From: a phage
DNA: 64,000 nucleotides
Reading direction: 5' to 3' (one strand)
Sequence record: PZ452594.1
Each line of letters opens with the position of its first letter. The first letter of the stretch is position 1. The position numbers and the translations under genes are program-made. The notes beneath the pieces are model-generated. The model was not told the origin of the DNA, searched no databases, and saw nothing but the letters and a program-made list of their open reading frames with translations. Of this stretch, positions 14,919 to 24,872 are shown piece by piece.

Positions 14919-15389
14919 TTAATCATGTTTCCACACCCCATCGGTATTTGACCAAAGTCGCTGATTATCTGATCCTCGCCACAGCTTTTTAGTCGGAAGA
15001 TTTTTCTCATACTTCCCATCAATAATAACATCAACATATTTAAGCATTTCTAGTTGTTTAATATCTTCAAATTTATATCCTGTCCACAACCAAATGCTTT
15101 TATTGGGATAAAGATTTTTTACTGTTTGAACCACAGAGTGAATCACGTCTCTGTTATCAGGATAAAGAGGGTCACCTCCGGTTATAGTTAATCCTTCTAT
15201 ATAATCATTATTCAAACATTCAATCAATTGTTCTAGTGTTTCACCAGTAAATGGAATACCATTTCTAGCATTCCATGTTGATTTATTATAACACCCTTCG
15301 CATTTATGCAAACAACCTGTAACGAAAAGAACGACCCTGCAACCAGGGCCATTAACAAAATCGCAAGGATAAAATCTATCATAATTCAT
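14919..15389 (-). CDS. nrdG: anaerobic ribonucleotide reductase activase NrdG (radical SAM, 156 aa)
   Basis: CxxxCxxC cluster motif GCLHKCEGCYN. Confidence 0.85.
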   Translation of the reverse strand: MNYDRFYPCDFVNGPGCRVVLFVTGCLHKCEGCYNKSTWNARNGIPFTGETLEQLIECLNNDYIEGLTITGGDPLYPDNRDVIHSVVQTVKNLYPNKSIWLWTGYKFEDIKQLEMLKYVDVIIDGKYEKNLPTKKLWRGSDNQRLWSNTDGVWKHD

Positions 15390-17203
15390 TGGTGTTTAAC
15401 CCTATGCATGATTTCTTTATTTTTACCGAGATTAAATCCGCGTTCGTTTGGATTTCCCAAATAACCACATGTTCTTCTTATGGTGTTCATCTTTTTAGGA
15501 TCAGTTTCTCCACAAATAGAACAAACAAATCCGTTTTCAGTAGGAGTCATTTCATGGGTACTTCCACATGTAAAACATTTATCTACTGGCATATTAACAC
15601 CAAAATAATCTAAATGTTGTGCAGCATAATCCCATACGGCCTCAAGACCTTTTAAGTTATTTTTCATATCAGGAAGTTCAACATAAGAAATGTGACCACC
15701 TGTCGCAATGAAATGATATGACGCTTCACGAGAAATCTTTTCAAACGGAGTAATATTTTCTTCTACTGAAACATGGAAACTGTTAGTGTACCAGCCTTTA
15801 TCGGTAACATCTTTTACACTTCCATATTTTTCTGTATCAAGTTTACAGAAGCGATAACAAAGGTTTTCAGCAGGAGTCGAATATAAACTAAAAGCAAATC
15901 CAGTTCTTTCAGTCCACTGTTTAAGATGAGCATTCATTTTAGTTAAAATTTCTCGTCCAATATCACGACCGACAAGAATATTCAATTCGTGAATACCAAT
16001 GTATCCTAAAGACACTGAACTTCTACCGTTTTTAAATAACTCAATTATGTCGTCATCAGGTTTAAGACGAACCCCGAATGCACCTTCTTGGTAAAGAATA
16101 GGAGCAACAGTAGCTTTAACTCCTTTTAAGGAACTAATTCTACACATCAATGCTTCAAAACATAAATCCATTCGTTCATTAAATAGCTCAACAAATTTTT
16201 GTTCATTGAATTGTGTTCCAATATAAGAATCTAACGCGATGCGAGGAAGATTCAGTGTTACAACACCAAGATTATTACGTCCATCAAGAATTTCATTACC
16301 AGTCGAATCTTTCCATACGCTCAAGAAACTACGGCAACCCATTGGAGAAACAGGAACAGATGAACCAGTGATAGCTTTATTGTTCTTAGCTGAAATAATA
16401 TCAGGATACATCCTTTTGCTTGCACACTCTAGAGCAAGCTGCTTAATATCATAGTTCGGATCGTCTTTGTAAAGATTAACGCCTTCTTCGACGAACATAA
16501 CAAGCTTAGGAAAAATAGGAGTTATCCCATCACGACCGAGACCTTTAATACGATTTTTCAGAATTGCTTTCTGAATCATTCGTTCAGTCCAGTCAGTTCC
16601 CGTACCAAATGTAATTGTTACAAAAGGTGTTTGCCCGTTTGAACTAAAGAGAGTATTTACTTCATATTCATAAGCTTGGAATGCATCGTATACGTCTTTT
16701 TCTGTTTTAGATTGAGCATAATTCAACGCATCAGCGATTTGCCATTTTTCTGCATCCTCAATATGTTTTGCATAGGTGCGTTTAACATAAGGAGAAAGTA
16801 CTTTATCTACATTAGCAAAAGTCGTTCCGCCATATTGATGGGAAGCAACTTGCGCAGTAATTTGTGCCATAATTGCAGTAGCAACGCCAATTGATTTAGG
16901 AGTTTCAATCTGTGCATTACCAAGCTTAAATCCGTTCTCAAGCATTCCTTTTAAATCTACTAAACAGCAATTAGTAAATGGAAGAGCAGGGGAATAATCA
17001 ATATCATGGAAATGGATAATTCCGCTTTCATGCGCTTTCATAATAAAAGACGGGACCATATTTTTGGCAATGTGTTTAGACACAATACCAGCCATAAGGT
17101 CCCGTTGAGTTGGAAAAACACGAGAATCTTTATTAGCATTCTCGTTTAAAAGGTCTTTATTAGTTTTATGAATCAATCCTTCAATTTCTTTTTCAATTGT
17201 CAT
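15386..17203 (-). CDS. nrdD: anaerobic ribonucleoside-triphosphate reductase NrdD (605 aa), uninterrupted
   Basis: C-terminal glycyl-radical motif RRTCGYLG and Cys cluster; single continuous ORF (no intron). Confidence 0.9.
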   Translation of the reverse strand: MTIEKEIEGLIHKTNKDLLNENANKDSRVFPTQRDLMAGIVSKHIAKNMVPSFIMKAHESGIIHFHDIDYSPALPFTNCCLVDLKGMLENGFKLGNAQIETPKSIGVATAIMAQITAQVASHQYGGTTFANVDKVLSPYVKRTYAKHIEDAEKWQIADALNYAQSKTEKDVYDAFQAYEYEVNTLFSSNGQTPFVTITFGTGTDWTERMIQKAILKNRIKGLGRDGITPIFPKLVMFVEEGVNLYKDDPNYDIKQLALECASKRMYPDIISAKNNKAITGSSVPVSPMGCRSFLSVWKDSTGNEILDGRNNLGVVTLNLPRIALDSYIGTQFNEQKFVELFNERMDLCFEALMCRISSLKGVKATVAPILYQEGAFGVRLKPDDDIIELFKNGRSSVSLGYIGIHELNILVGRDIGREILTKMNAHLKQWTERTGFAFSLYSTPAENLCYRFCKLDTEKYGSVKDVTDKGWYTNSFHVSVEENITPFEKISREASYHFIATGGHISYVELPDMKNNLKGLEAVWDYAAQHLDYFGVNMPVDKCFTCGSTHEMTPTENGFVCSICGETDPKKMNTIRRTCGYLGNPNERGFNLGKNKEIMHRVKHQ

Positions 17204-19549: not shown

Positions 19550-19939
19550 TTAATCCAAAATATTATTAGGCATTGGTTGAACACTCACAAGTTCTTTAAA
19601 GAACTCAGTAGAGTCAGGCAATTTAACCATTTCCGGAGCATGCTTACTGAATTTATGTTTACATTGACGGCATTTATATTCAAGCTCTGGTTTACGCCAG
19701 TTAATCAACTGAACTTGTTCAGTACCGCATTCAGGGCAATTAGGAACGTTTTTAGAAGCTCTTTCACGTCGTTCAACCATAGCCATAATAGCATCCCATG
19801 CTGGAGGTTTAAAATCTAAATCGTCGCAGCCGTGAATCTTTCCACGCATTTCCATATCATCTTCCTCACCAGCCATAATAATTTTAATTAAACTGGAATT
19901 ACTTGAAGCTGCAATGTCTTCTAATAAACGCTTTTTCAT
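19550..19939 (-). CDS. hypothetical zinc-ribbon protein (129 aa)
   Basis: CPECG...CRQCKH four-Cys motif. Confidence 0.45.
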
Positions 19940-20865
19940 TTCAATACCTCAATAGCATTACGTAAACCATTTGCTTTTGCATTAAGAGCTTTTAACAATT
20001 TGGTGTGTTCTGCAATTTGGGCTTCAACTTCAATCAAACGGGCATTGAGATATTCACGTTCTTCACTCAGATTATCAACCTTTTCTACTTTAGGCTCTTT
20101 TACAACTGTCTTATATGTATTAGGGTTCTTCAGTTTAATTAGAATGCGTGAACTGTATAACATTGAACCATTATCTTCGGTTTCGTCATACATTTCCACT
20201 ACGTCCATAATTTTTAACATCATGCGGAGTTTATAAGACAACGAACGAATAGTTTTGTTGTGCTTATTAATTTCTTTAGCTGTCATGGTGCCAAGATTAC
20301 GTGAGTAATAATAAGGAACCTGGATATTAATTAATACTGATGAACCACCTGGCTTGTGTGTTACTTCATCAGCAATAACCCAGTCCTTAACATGAACTGT
20401 ATTTGTACGGTCATCGCCCGCGGTAAATAGTTTGCGAGCATGCTTAAAAAGCATATTCACTTGGTCATTGAATTGACAAGCAAATTTATCAGCAAATTTA
20501 GTTTCAGGAATGGTAGAAAACCAATCAGCCAAATGAGTCTTTTTAACATCATTAACAATAGTAAATTCAACCAAATCGGTTATAGATGTCTCAGATTTAA
20601 TGAAGCTCGGCTTCATAAAGTTTTTAATGTTCTCATGAGCTACAGTAGAAGATAACATACGAGAACGTTTAAACCATTCAAGCAAATTGCCTAACGAATG
20701 AGAATAAGCGTTTTGAGTATCTTTACAGATATGATTTTCCTGACCAACATATTGAAGGAAATCACGAAGAATATTATTGATTACTGCTCTGTGTCCTATC
20801 TGATAATTACGATGTTTAGTAATAAGACTGTCAAAATAATCAATATAATGTTTACGAGTTTTCAT
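19936..20865 (-). CDS. hypothetical protein (309 aa), C-terminal coiled coil; paralogue family member 1
   Basis: ORF track; C-terminal heptad region ...[31 protein letters not shown]. Confidence 0.5.
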   Translation of the reverse strand: MKTRKHYIDYFDSLITKHRNYQIGHRAVINNILRDFLQYVGQENHICKDTQNAYSHSLGNLLEWFKRSRMLSSTVAHENIKNFMKPSFIKSETSITDLVEFTIVNDVKKTHLADWFSTIPETKFADKFACQFNDQVNMLFKHARKLFTAGDDRTNTVHVKDWVIADEVTHKPGGSSVLINIQVPYYYSRNLGTMTAKEINKHNKTIRSLSYKLRMMLKIMDVVEMYDETEDNGSMLYSSRILIKLKNPNTYKTVVKEPKVEKVDNLSEEREYLNARLIEVEAQIAEHTKLLKALNAKANGLRNAIEVLK

Positions 20866-20917
20866 GTTCTTCTCACTTGGTTAATGGTTTATACTCCGAG
20901 CCATCCTTGGCTTTAAA

Positions 20918-21946
20918 TTACTTAATTAACTGTAAAGCTTGTTCAAGACGATCAAGACGATTAACGGATTCTTCCCAAATCTTTTTAGCCTGCTCATATT
21001 CTTTCTGCGCTTTATTAGAAATTTCTAGAACTTCTTTATAAGCTTTTTCTAATGCAATAACTTCTGGACGAATTTCTACCGGTTCAGGTGAATCATCAAG
21101 ACATTCCATTAGTTCCTCAAGGGTAGTTTCTTCTTTAGGAGTATTCACAATTTCATCACATTTTTGTTGGTAAATTTCTTTACTAGTAGGTGAATAAGTA
21201 CATTTCACTTCACGAAGACTAACTACAATTTTATATCCTTCCCAACCGCATATATTCTTAAAAGGATATGTATGAATATTTTCTACTGTTTCCATACAGC
21301 CCAAAACCGCCTCTAATTGATAAGTTATAGTGCTAGCAATTGAGAAAAATTTATTAATATTCTTTTGGTTAGCGTTTGGTGTAAAAAATCCATAATTCAC
21401 AAAAATAGCTACTTTATTTTCATCAAGCTCATATTCTTTTACGATAATCATATCAGAAGCCAAAGGATGAATTTGACGATAATCGCCATAACATAATTTA
21501 GAAGCTGATTTTAGAATTTGTCCTTTGAAAAGTCTGAAATTACTAATCCAACGACGAGTAAAAATATTCTCAGGGTCTTCTTTATTAAGATGATAAGAAT
21601 TAACATCACCGAACCAATTATATCCTACTACATCTTTAGTTCGTTTAATTTCTTTCCCAAATTTACTAAGAATATCTCTGTTGACTAAGTATGAAAGAAG
21701 ACGAGACCCTTTAAAGGTTTTCTTAATGTCATCTTTATCTGTACGACTAGAAATTTCACGAACTTCATGAATAAATTTGCCGGAAGAAACAATACTTGCA
21801 TCAGTATTATTGAGCCATTGATTGATAATAGAAATCACACTATTCTGACTAGACATAGGTTTAACTTTATCATCAATAACGCTGTTGAACGATTTAATAT
21901 ATTCGTTGCGAGTCATATTAATCTCCTCAGTAGAAAGTAAGAACAT
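20918..21946 (-). CDS. hypothetical protein (342 aa), C-terminal coiled coil; family member 2
   Basis: ORF track; C-terminus ...AQKEYEQAKKIWEESVNRLDRLEQALQLIK. Confidence 0.5.
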   Translation of the reverse strand: MFLLSTEEINMTRNEYIKSFNSVIDDKVKPMSSQNSVISIINQWLNNTDASIVSSGKFIHEVREISSRTDKDDIKKTFKGSRLLSYLVNRDILSKFGKEIKRTKDVVGYNWFGDVNSYHLNKEDPENIFTRRWISNFRLFKGQILKSASKLCYGDYRQIHPLASDMIIVKEYELDENKVAIFVNYGFFTPNANQKNINKFFSIASTITYQLEAVLGCMETVENIHTYPFKNICGWEGYKIVVSLREVKCTYSPTSKEIYQQKCDEIVNTPKEETTLEELMECLDDSPEPVEIRPEVIALEKAYKEVLEISNKAQKEYEQAKKIWEESVNRLDRLEQALQLIK

Positions 21947-21973
21947 TATACCACATCCTTGTGGCGAAGTAAA

Positions 21974-22978
21974 CTAGTTTAGTGCATTTAGTGCGTTGTT
22001 CAATTTAGAACGTTGCTTCGTGAGATTTTTTACTTTTTCTTGGGCTTTTTCTAGCATCTTTTCAGCTTCTAACACTTCATTAGTTGCTTTAACGAGTTCA
22101 TCATCTACTGCCTTGATAGACTTCTCAATCGCATCCGCGTGCCATTTTTCAACAGGTTTAAGACTCGGATTTTCAACAGGAAGAAAATTCACTTTATTGA
22201 ATTTCCATGCATCATTATTACCTGAACTATACATCCAAAATTTAGGATCGTTTGATGAGTAATTAGTTTGGGGTTCAGGTTTTTTCTCTTGTGTAACTTC
22301 GTCCTTTCTCAAAAAATCATATTTAAATGAAACGATCATATCAAGTTCATATGTTGTCGTATCTAATTTAAATCGTTCGAAATGCTGCGAAATCTTAGAT
22401 TGAACAGCAGCAACAACATCCATATACTTAAATGCTTCTGTCAGCTGTGATTTAAGACATTCACAAATTGAAAGAGAATTTTTTGTATTAGGTTTAAAGC
22501 TAATTCGTGCAGTTCTATTATTTTCTTTAGATGGTCTTACTTCCATCTGAAGAGTATAACCATCAAATTTCAGATTCTTTAAGTTAATATCAGAACCTTT
22601 TAATCGACTAGCCGTCGACAAAATTTGCTTTAATTGTTTACGGAATAGAGCAATAAATCTCCATTCAATACGATAATGATTTGGATTGAAAAATCCAGAT
22701 GATAAATCGACCTTACTCTGACCAACACCTTGAACAAATAGAGGATTTTTATAATCAATAGTTTTACAGAAATCGGTGAGCTGCTCACGAGCAGTCATTT
22801 GTGTAATATACCCCGCTTTACTAAAATGACGTAACCATTCACTGCTATTCATATATTTAAAGTGAATATCACGATTAACTTTATCAGGGTCTAAATTATT
22901 TTGGCACAAAAATGTCATAACATCGCGAGTATAGCTGGCATTACGAACCATATCTTCAATTTGAGAACGAGTTTTCAT
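21974..22978 (-). CDS. hypothetical protein (334 aa), C-terminal coiled coil; family member 3
   Basis: ORF track; C-terminus ...EAEKMLEKAQEKVKNLTKQRSKLNNALNALN. Confidence 0.5.
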   Translation of the reverse strand: MKTRSQIEDMVRNASYTRDVMTFLCQNNLDPDKVNRDIHFKYMNSSEWLRHFSKAGYITQMTAREQLTDFCKTIDYKNPLFVQGVGQSKVDLSSGFFNPNHYRIEWRFIALFRKQLKQILSTASRLKGSDINLKNLKFDGYTLQMEVRPSKENNRTARISFKPNTKNSLSICECLKSQLTEAFKYMDVVAAVQSKISQHFERFKLDTTTYELDMIVSFKYDFLRKDEVTQEKKPEPQTNYSSNDPKFWMYSSGNNDAWKFNKVNFLPVENPSLKPVEKWHADAIEKSIKAVDDELVKATNEVLEAEKMLEKAQEKVKNLTKQRSKLNNALNALN

Positions 22979-22986
22979 GGTGTTCC

Positions 22987-23895
22987 TTAAGATTTAAGTA
23001 AATCAACAATTTTAATTAATTTTTCACGTTCAGATTTAGCTTTACTACTCAGTCCAGATAGTCTGAAAATTTCATCGTCATATTGTTGAATAGAAATATT
23101 CAGCTCTTCAATTTGCTTATTAAAATAATCAATTTGTTCAGAATGTTTTTCGTTACTACGAACTGGTACAGGTTTTGTAGGAAATTTAGTTAAACTGGAT
23201 TCATCCGGGCGATAAATTAAAATGCAATTTGAACCAATCGGGCATTTAGCACCAGATGAATATTCTAACGTTCCAGCTTCTTTTAAAACTTCAAAAGCTA
23301 AACAGAGATGATGCCCCATATTAACATAATCTGTAGAGCGAGCTCTGATATAATAATCATCGCCGCGAATACTAAATTTAAAGCATTTAAGGTCTTCTGT
23401 ATTATTGGTCTTAAAAATCATTTGTTTATCTAGACCTTTAGCTAATCGAGCGCCTAATGCTAATAATCGTCGTTGATTTTCCCACAAATCCGCAATCATT
23501 TGATCGAATGACAATTTCGGCATTAGTCTACCATAAAGGTCATATCCTTTATTATAATTGCGAAGAATTTCACTCGCGTTAATACGAGACAACGCTCCAA
23601 TTTTATTAAGGGCTTTCATGATGCGATTAGATAAACCCATTCCAGACCCGTTTGTTCGCTGTAAATGTTTTTCTAATCCAAATCCAATATCAACTTTAAA
23701 CTTATCTAAAATTTCTGCATGAACATCTCTGTCAATAACATTCAAATCCAAAGTTGGGTTAAATCTATGAAAAAATTTATCTGGCTCTCCACGACGAAGT
23801 ACAGTCCATTCATTCAATTTTTTATTAACTAAAGATTTAATTACTGCATTGACATTATTAATTACTACTGACATATTTTCCTCACTCAATTTCAA
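22987..23895 (-). CDS. hypothetical protein (302 aa), C-terminal coiled coil; family member 4
   Basis: ORF track; C-terminus ...SKAKSEREKLIKIVDLLKS. Confidence 0.5.
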   Translation of the reverse strand: MKLSEENMSVVINNVNAVIKSLVNKKLNEWTVLRRGEPDKFFHRFNPTLDLNVIDRDVHAEILDKFKVDIGFGLEKHLQRTNGSGMGLSNRIMKALNKIGALSRINASEILRNYNKGYDLYGRLMPKLSFDQMIADLWENQRRLLALGARLAKGLDKQMIFKTNNTEDLKCFKFSIRGDDYYIRARSTDYVNMGHHLCLAFEVLKEAGTLEYSSGAKCPIGSNCILIYRPDESSLTKFPTKPVPVRSNEKHSEQIDYFNKQIEELNISIQQYDDEIFRLSGLSSKAKSEREKLIKIVDLLKS

Positions 23896-24344: not shown

Positions 24345-24872
24345 TTATGCGAGTACCGTCTTTAACCGTTCTTCAAACTTCCGAAGAGTATTCTGGCGTT
24401 CAGCTCTTTGCTTTTTGTAAGTTTCAATACGCTCTGAAATGAGAGTGTATCGTTCATTTACTGATTCTTTCATAAAATCAGGAATTTCACGAGAAGCTTT
24501 AATCTCGTCAAATTTATCAATAACAGCTTGCTCTTCAGCAATTAAGTTATCATACATCAAAATATCTTTCTTGATGAACTCAATATCTTCTTGAGTTACA
24601 CGAGATAATTTAGATGCTTTATCCTTTTTGTACTGTTCGTTAGTATCACGAGACCAGTGTAATGTACGATTTTTATTCGTATTCTTATAAATTTCTACAA
24701 TACCAATCTCATCAATAATAACGATCCAATTCCAACGGGATTTGTAAATTTGTCCTCCATCAACAGTGATTTCACCTCCGATTGAGATGTCATTAAAGAA
24801 CTTGCTTTGTGCTTCAGATTTAAATTTACCATCATTGTAGTTTACCAAGTTGAAAATATCTTTAGCATTCAT
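24345..24872 (-). CDS. hypothetical protein (175 aa)
   Basis: ATG at 24870-24872 (MNAKDIFNLV) just downstream of early promoter; the longer track ORF would run through the promoter. Confidence 0.45.
   Translation of the reverse strand: MNAKDIFNLVNYNDGKFKSEAQSKFFNDISIGGEITVDGGQIYKSRWNWIVIIDEIGIVEIYKNTNKNRTLHWSRDTNEQYKKDKASKLSRVTQEDIEFIKKDILMYDNLIAEEQAVIDKFDEIKASREIPDFMKESVNERYTLISERIETYKKQRAERQNTLRKFEERLKTVLA

Follow-up and report, generated by a model that had tools for sequence, protein, structure and literature searches.

How are four consecutive, similarly sized genes of a T4-like phage related to each other, and what might such a set do for the phage that carries it? The genes in question lie at 19936-23895 in a stretch of 64,000 nucleotides from sequence record PZ452594.1 (the window, by which we mean that whole stretch), which comes from a member of the T4-like genus Tequatrovirus; the DNA of the four genes is 96-98% identical to that of many Escherichia and Shigella Tequatrovirus genomes. 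An earlier note, made from the letters of this DNA, described four co-oriented open reading frames (ORFs) of 309, 342, 334 and 302 amino acids, with coordinates and lengths that proved exact and all on the minus strand, and proposed that they join a constant C-terminal coiled coil to different N-terminal domains, as receptor, decoy or inhibitor families do. We call them ORFs A, B, C and D. Judged by the DNA identity to Tequatrovirus and by their unchanged order between nrdC.2 and nrdC.7, they are the orthologues of T4 nrdC.3, nrdC.4, nrdC.5 and nrdC.6, with protein identities to T4 of 61% (A/NrdC.3), 91% (B/NrdC.4), 91% over the full length (C/NrdC.5) and 97% (D/NrdC.6).

19936..20865, minus strand: ORF A, nrdC.3-type, 309 amino acids; phrog_1435 (E 8e-116), homologues with PF26897 (Phage_T4_Y04OP)
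20918..21946, minus strand: ORF B, nrdC.4-type, 342-amino-acid frame; likely gene 20918..21916, 332 amino acids; phrog_1435 (E 1e-165)
21974..22978, minus strand: ORF C, nrdC.5-type, 334 amino acids; Pfam DUF7235 (E 1.2e-117)
22987..23895, minus strand: ORF D, nrdC.6-type, 302-amino-acid frame; likely gene 22987..23874, 295 amino acids; phrog_2257 (E 1.6e-152), homologues with PF26899 (Phage_T4_Y05B)

The matches of A and B to phrog_1435 and of D to phrog_2257 are full-length family matches, and all close homologues of A and B carry PF26897; ORF C matches DUF7235 (PF23882) over residues 1-334 with a score of 393 bits (cutoff 30).

Homology of the four proteins

ORFs A-D appear to be tandem, colinear, full-length but divergent duplicates of one gene, and the homology is detectable in their heads. 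That the N-terminal regions have strongly diverged, as had been noted, is true by identity: BLASTP among the four and their neighbors joins only A and B, at 25% identity over the N-terminal 225 residues (E 7e-7) and not via the tails, the other pairs being undetected. The relationship emerges from profile comparisons, for which the family alignments were made from database homologues together with divergent orthologues from Dhakavirus, Mosigvirus, Gaprivervirus-type and NC-G genomes. With hhalign, A and B are joined at a probability of 98% (E 1.7e-14, residues 3-247, about 225 columns), while their comparisons with C give probabilities of 59-72% and E values from 3e-5 to 9e-5 in colinear alignments of 125-231 columns; A-C stands at 72% (E 3e-5) and B-C at 68% (E 5e-5), the latter colinear over 231 columns (80-335 against 54-320). 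A metagenomic protein, P0263 (315 amino acids), bridges these groups, matching the B profile at 93% (E 3e-7) and the C profile at 95% (E 4e-8) nearly end to end, tail included. It is also among the 11 proteins, all of the A/B type, that HMMER recovered with the A/B profile from 1.84 billion representatives. A, B, C and P0263 have a common N-terminal motif, M(K)TR..(Y/I/V)I; the MKTR start previously ascribed to two of the four is that of A and C, and B reads MTR at its likely true start. Three further motifs are present in A-D, with their order kept:

M1 (A-D): F-K-x-S/G-R/x-L/I-L/I-S/T...A/V...L..F/Y
M2 (A-D): W/F...F/Q-R/N......I/L-L..A-S/R-K/R-L..G-D
M3 (A-D): Y/H-x-L...L..M/L-D/E-x-V/G

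A profile merged from A, B and C matches D at E 6e-5 (33-172 against 51-175). Predicted structure bears on D as well. The AlphaFold2 monomer models of B and D, with predicted local distance difference test (pLDDT) values of 82.7 and 75.1, have in common an N-terminal part made up of a helical domain, a two-helix hairpin and a small sheet, a middle part with helices 128/130-139, 141-151 and 154-157 followed by a beta hairpin, a long helix and a second beta hairpin, and a C-terminal part in which a disordered linker leads to the terminal helix, so that B and D are predicted to have the same fold. The architecture we assign to all four proteins is a helical N-domain (about 90 residues), an alpha/beta domain (about 150 residues), a poorly ordered linker and a long amphipathic heptad helix at the C-terminus. 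In Foldseek searches the two models match, over full length, the same four BFVD proteins, all of them uncharacterised and from other T4-like phages:

A0A7G3KGN9, Enterobacter phage IME523: E 1.7e-7 for the B model, 7e-7 for the D model
A0A0A0PZG4, Pectobacterium phage PM2: E 1.3e-7 for the B model, 7.3e-7 for the D model
E5EPQ6, Acinetobacter phage Acj9: E 1.4e-6 for the B model, 3e-4 for the D model
E5E4A2, Acinetobacter phage Acj61: E 6e-6 for the B model, 5.6e-4 for the D model

The models and these full-length matches would close the gap that the weak sequence match leaves at D. An hmmsearch of the window for further paralogues found none, and a PDB sequence search for A/B, C and D gave nothing significant. 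Apart from the T4-specific families, Pfam and NCBIfam yielded sub-threshold matches only (PHL, DUF3905, an integrase SAM-like domain and coiled-coil families), which were not used.

The family appears to be restricted to the T4-like phages (Straboviridae), outside of which neither the database homologue searches nor the whole-library HMMER search found it. With tblastn, 742 records of the phage collection proved to contain D, against 641 for C and 554 for B, and the linked superfamily takes in proteins of about 300-370 amino acids from T4-like phages of Acinetobacter, Pectobacterium, Erwinia, Serratia, Klebsiella and Aeromonas. A comparison of copy number across related phages, which the earlier note had recommended, shows an array that varies from two to four copies, beside nrdC:

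Window, Tequatrovirus: D-C-B-A
Dhakavirus JS98 and phage NC-G: D-C-B
A Mosigvirus: D-C-A-like
Acinetobacter phage Acj61 (Twarogvirinae): two tandem structural homologues, Acj61p120 and Acj61p121, both heptad-tailed, about 1.4 kb upstream of nrdC

Acj61 also has an unrelated tandem pair (L014, 9028-11322), Acj61p076 and Acj61p077, of 372 amino acids each and annotated as mutual copies, beside gene 40.

The terminal helices and the alleles

Each of the four proteins ends in a helix of about 45 residues with an unbroken heptad pattern, as had been seen at first inspection. When the occupancy of the a and d positions in the last 42 residues is compared with that of same-residue shuffles, p is 0.001 for A, 0.0095 for B, less than 0.0005 for C and 0.0005 for D, and the models of B and D show terminal helices. 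The same test was applied to the 72 coding-strand ORFs in the window with 100 or more amino acids, and just 5 pass it, namely A-D and nrdC.8, so the clustering of such tails is far beyond chance.

19939..20073, minus strand: heptad helix at the C-terminus of A, final 45 codons; heptad p = 0.001
20921..21067, minus strand: helix at the C-terminus of B, from residue 294 to 342 in the 342-amino-acid frame; AlphaFold2 helix 294-341, heptad p = 0.0095
21977..22153, minus strand: heptad helix at the C-terminus of C, roughly the final 59 codons; heptad p < 0.0005, aligns to the tail of P0263
22990..23151, minus strand: helices at the C-terminus of D, from residue 249 to 302 in the 302-amino-acid frame; AlphaFold2 helices 249-278 and 284-301, heptad p = 0.0005
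24345-24872, minus strand: nrdC.8, Pfam Phage_T4_Y05D, 175 amino acids from its likely start; heptad tail p = 0.0035-0.005, ends ...FEERLKTVLA

The last of these, nrdC.8, lies two genes upstream of the four-gene array. It was considered as a fifth member and rejected despite its heptad tail, the hhalign probability being less than 2% to every group in a comparison of sequences only.

Are the tails, then, one homologous module? The tails of A-D have a common ending, A-(I/L)-x-x-(L/V/A)-(L/I)-K, and the four heptad helices stand in one register relative to this terminal hydrophobic-x-x-hydrophobic-hydrophobic-K motif, as would be expected if a homologous C-terminal oligomerisation module had been joined to unrelated or exchanged N-terminal domains in the style of a constant-stalk receptor or decoy. 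Such a model would also accommodate the fact that the tail is the best-conserved part within every orthologue group (mean pairwise identity of the last 40 residues and of the rest: A 0.84 and 0.71, B 0.60 and 0.53, C 0.46 and 0.39, D 0.72 and 0.57), as well as the retention of both ends, around a strongly different middle, in the nrdC.3 alleles of the window and of T4. However, when the tails alone were compared by hhalign as 49-column profiles, none of the six pairs was significant against heptad-block-permuted nulls, 10-128 of 150 of which reached the observed score. The likeness between groups therefore looks like that of a generic coiled coil, compositional in nature. What all four groups keep is the presence and position of the tail, whereas its sequence is conserved inside each orthologue group and not across groups. 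Because the tail-only comparison is not significant, the idea of a homologous tail module was dropped, and for the tails this is the outcome that the earlier note had itself named as speaking against its view; with heads that are homologous and colinear instead of different (A-B at E 1.7e-14, M1-M3 in A-D), and with one predicted fold for B and D, the modular model is largely excluded by the data, and we regard it as very improbable. Of the original description of paralogues sharing a coiled coil, the four paralogues and a terminal helix kept as architecture survive, but not a homology of the tail sequences beyond chance.

The ratio of nonsynonymous to synonymous substitution rates (dN/dS) among six Tequatrovirus genomes is 0.11-0.29 for the four genes, which argues that all four are working genes under purifying selection. 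In the tails it falls to 0.03 for B and 0.00 for D, where dN is 0 among five Tequatrovirus orthologues. Self-association through the tail helix is plausible. This strongest purifying selection in the tails of B and D, and the group-specific character of the tails, would also be expected of a specific interface with some other molecule, and it might be supposed that the tail is an amphipathic helix that binds a target, either in the groove of a tetratricopeptide repeat (TPR) sensor or on a common host or phage partner, and does not self-associate. TPR domains commonly bind helices or peptides. The sensor of Dsr1, the defence protein overcome by T4 NrdC.5 (see below), is built of TPR repeats (PMC12803255). 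An unbroken pattern of six heptads is nevertheless more like a coiled coil than like a TPR ligand, and T4 nrdC.6 is without the tail, and so we consider target binding by the tail unlikely, if worth bearing in mind.

The T4 gene just mentioned (NC_000866, L001, 12067-12894, 275 amino acids) has a frameshift after ...NKQIEEL and ends IFLFNNMMMKFSDYLD, without the heptad helix; tblastn needed two pieces to cover it. T4 would thus seem to carry a natural tail-less or decaying copy of nrdC.6. A different rearrangement is found in the nrdC.6 of Shigella phage Sf25 (P0151, 378 amino acids), in which about 82 residues are repeated in tandem within the protein and IRAHSTDYVNMG...NKQIEEL occurs twice; the repeated stretch takes in the end of the alpha/beta domain together with the linker.

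In nrdC.3, the first 80 and last 40 residues of the window protein are 75-100% identical to those of T4, while the middle is 25-65% identical. The synonymous divergence (dS) of the middle, about 0.9, points to its exchange with a more distant allele, and the sequences indicate that at least two deeply diverged nrdC.3 alleles circulate in Tequatrovirus. A further protein, P0072 (299 amino acids, on contigs of up to 167 kb), joins NrdC.5 145-266 to NrdC.3 129-309 at a short KVN / QVNMLF microhomology; the deletion that made this chimera removes nrdC.4, and the array thus appears to be prone to internal deletions.

Counter-defence as a proposed function

Of particular relevance to function is the published work on NrdC.5 of T4. 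A T4 clone with deletions lost plating on ECOR17, and deletion of dsr1 from ECOR17 brought plating back; plasmid-borne dsr1 protected MG1655, and T4 nrdC.5 supplied in trans allowed the T4 deletion mutant to plate again on MG1655 with the ECOR17 dsr1 (PMC9391042). In the same paper nrdC.5 is termed an early gene. Dsr1 is a SIR2 NADase, with a TPR sensor that it has in common with Avs7 and that is triggered by the phage major capsid protein (2026 preprint, PMC12803255). PMC9391042 is the one paper in the literature searched that assigns a function to any of the four genes; that literature offers no mechanism for NrdC.5 and no function for NrdC.3, NrdC.4 or NrdC.6. Given its 91% identity to T4 NrdC.5, the window allele would be expected to neutralise Dsr1 as well, and of the receptor, decoy and inhibitor families named in the earlier note, the last agrees with the single member on which experiments have been published.

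Because the published role of T4 NrdC.5 is to counter the Dsr1 defence, the best reading of the locus seems to be a battery of diverged inhibitors of immune sensors: an early, tandem-duplicated array in which each protein binds and neutralises a different sensor, with the tail acting as a paralogue-specific, homo-oligomeric coiled coil. We think this somewhat likelier to be right than wrong. The four proteins, products of tandem duplication, would be cytoplasmic and made early in infection, and would inhibit immune sensors of the host stoichiometrically or serve as decoys for them, each copy tuned to another target. NrdC.5 would neutralise Dsr1 by binding to it directly, and an anti-defence role would extend to NrdC.3, NrdC.4 and NrdC.6. 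The tail helix would make a homo-oligomer, adding avidity and preventing mixed assemblies; since the tails have diverged between the copies, the paralogues would not be expected to cross-assemble.

Several points weigh against this proposal. Anti-defence activity is demonstrated for T4 NrdC.5 alone among the four. The whole-library HMMER search with the A/B profile, for all its 1.84 billion representatives, reached no C or D family, and the sequence link to D is weak, with E values of 0.056 (AB-D) and 0.03 (C-D) in single-family hhalign comparisons; the membership of D would thus rest mainly on the two monomer models and their common Foldseek matches, in a fold comparison that covers the B and D models only. 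Furthermore, since the reference T4 nrdC.6 is frameshifted and tail-less, the D tail or even the entire gene is dispensable in the laboratory host.

A quite different possibility is a general function in host takeover or one related to nucleic acids, with NrdC.5 overcoming Dsr1 indirectly or through a side activity confined to this copy. The genes do lie among those for nucleotide metabolism and other early genes (nrdD, gene 49, nrdC, nrdC.10, nrdC.11), the family is conserved in Straboviridae subfamilies of different hosts, and residues 30-86 of A give a sub-threshold match (E 0.003-0.12) to the SAM-like domain found at the N-terminus of tyrosine recombinases. That match, however, like every family match other than the T4-specific ones, is below threshold, while the copy number is variable, one allele is mosaic, and deletion mutants without the genes still grow on laboratory hosts, as is typical of accessory, host-specific genes. 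A non-immune function accordingly strikes us as improbable, slightly more so than a target-binding tail.

The battery of sensor inhibitors can also be put in a narrower form, in which the array would consist of inhibitors matched to the capsid-sensing TPR receptors (Dsr1, Avs7 and relatives with other effectors), one receptor clade for each paralogue, with the alpha/beta domain as a mimic of a virion protein and the coiled coil providing avidity against oligomeric sensors. We put this forward as speculation, doubtful but less so than either a target-binding tail or a non-immune function. If it is true, copy number and allele type, the two nrdC.3 alleles for example, would help to set the host range of T4-like phages.

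Mimicry could be taken further, with an alpha/beta domain that derives from or imitates a tail-terminator or neck protein, so that the proteins serve as decoys for sensors of virion proteins. More than 20 of the top 30 structural matches are tail terminator or tail completion proteins, among them lambda gpU (3fz2), T5 p142 (8bcp) and those of GTA (gene transfer agent, 6tba), SaPI1 (9mu2) and Mu (9khy). Virion proteins do trigger such sensors, the capsid protein in the case of Dsr1 and the tail tube protein in the case of DSR2. But ferredoxin-like and other two-layer alpha/beta proteins are matched at similar Z, and the trigger of Dsr1 is the capsid protein, not a terminator; of all the explanations weighed here, we find this the hardest to credit.

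The locus and known systems

On the minus strand the array is flanked by nrdD, gene 49, nrdC, nrdC.1 and nrdC.2 on one side and by nrdC.7-nrdC.11 on the other, in the gene order of the T4 annotation. The window's nrdD (15386-17203, minus strand) is an uninterrupted ORF of 605 amino acids, lacking the group I intron with I-TevII that splits nrdD in T4. The start of B is most likely the ATG at 21916 (332 amino acids), which is preceded by the Shine-Dalgarno sequence GAGGAG, and that of D the ATG at 23874 (295 amino acids), preceded by the Shine-Dalgarno sequence GAGGAA; in both cases the homologues start there too. The following site lies just upstream of B:

21945..21973, minus strand: sigma-70/T4-early-type promoter-like site in the nrdC.5-nrdC.4 spacer, TTTACT-17 nucleotides-TATAAT with an upstream TG; a consensus match only

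The ATG at 21946 sits within this site, so the 342-amino-acid frame would overshoot nrdC.4 by 10 codons. A scan of the region for promoter-like and terminator-like sites gave no excess over shuffles (26 promoter-like sites found, 27.3 expected).

In hundreds of phage records GenBank labels nrdC.2-nrdC.6 "thioredoxin". As no thioredoxin or glutaredoxin model matches ORFs A-D, that identity was rejected, and the label is an error of annotation that has spread because the gene names begin with nrdC.

Part of this was already known: the genes as T4 ORFs, the NrdC.5 phenotype, and the paralogy of A and B, which is in Pfam and PHROGs since both proteins fall in Phage_T4_Y04OP and phrog_1435. The databases keep PF26897 (T4 NrdC.3 and NrdC.4), PF26899 (T4 NrdC.6) and PHROGs 1435, 2351 and 2257 as three separate families, with function unassigned. 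As far as our tools show, the link of the three families in one superfamily, their spread and synteny in Straboviridae, the mosaic nrdC.3 alleles and the group-specific tails are unrecorded. The advance is an incremental one, concerning long-known T4 ORFs with one published function, and involves no new kind of system. It may nonetheless be of some use, T4-like phages being the main workhorses of coliphage therapy, with a host range partly set by accessory counter-defence genes. If NrdC.3, NrdC.4 and NrdC.6 are related to the anti-Dsr1 protein NrdC.5, three genes become candidate inhibitors of other immune systems, and the array, if it is what we propose, would be a clear example of how counter-defence can evolve when a gene is duplicated in tandem and its copies diverge. 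The four similar proteins, the natural alleles with swapped middles and the natural tail-less variant of T4 provide an experimental handle.

Among known systems, the closest comparison is with T4 NrdC.5 itself (DUF7235; Srikant et al., eLife 2022, PMC9391042): ORF C has the same position, between nrdC.6 and nrdC.4, although the activity was demonstrated for the T4 protein against the Dsr1 of ECOR17 and not for the window allele. DSAD1 of phage SPbeta is a functional analogue, since with it a phage stops a SIR2-type sensor that depletes NAD+ and recognises a virion protein; it acts on DSR2, a tail-tube sensor, and belongs to Bacillus phages, whereas the direct binding of NrdC.5 to Dsr1 is presumed. 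The lambda gpU-like tail terminators have no sequence similarity to the nrdC proteins, and what the two have in common is a widespread type of alpha/beta sandwich; the nrdC proteins come from early genes, not from late virion genes, and have extra N-terminal and coiled-coil parts. The anti-toxin-antitoxin island of T4 (dmd, tifA, adfA) resembles the array in consisting of early, non-essential, small to medium-sized and deletion-prone genes, each directed against a different host system. But dmd, tifA and adfA are mutually unrelated, while the nrdC.3-nrdC.6 cluster comes from a single gene that was duplicated and has diverged.

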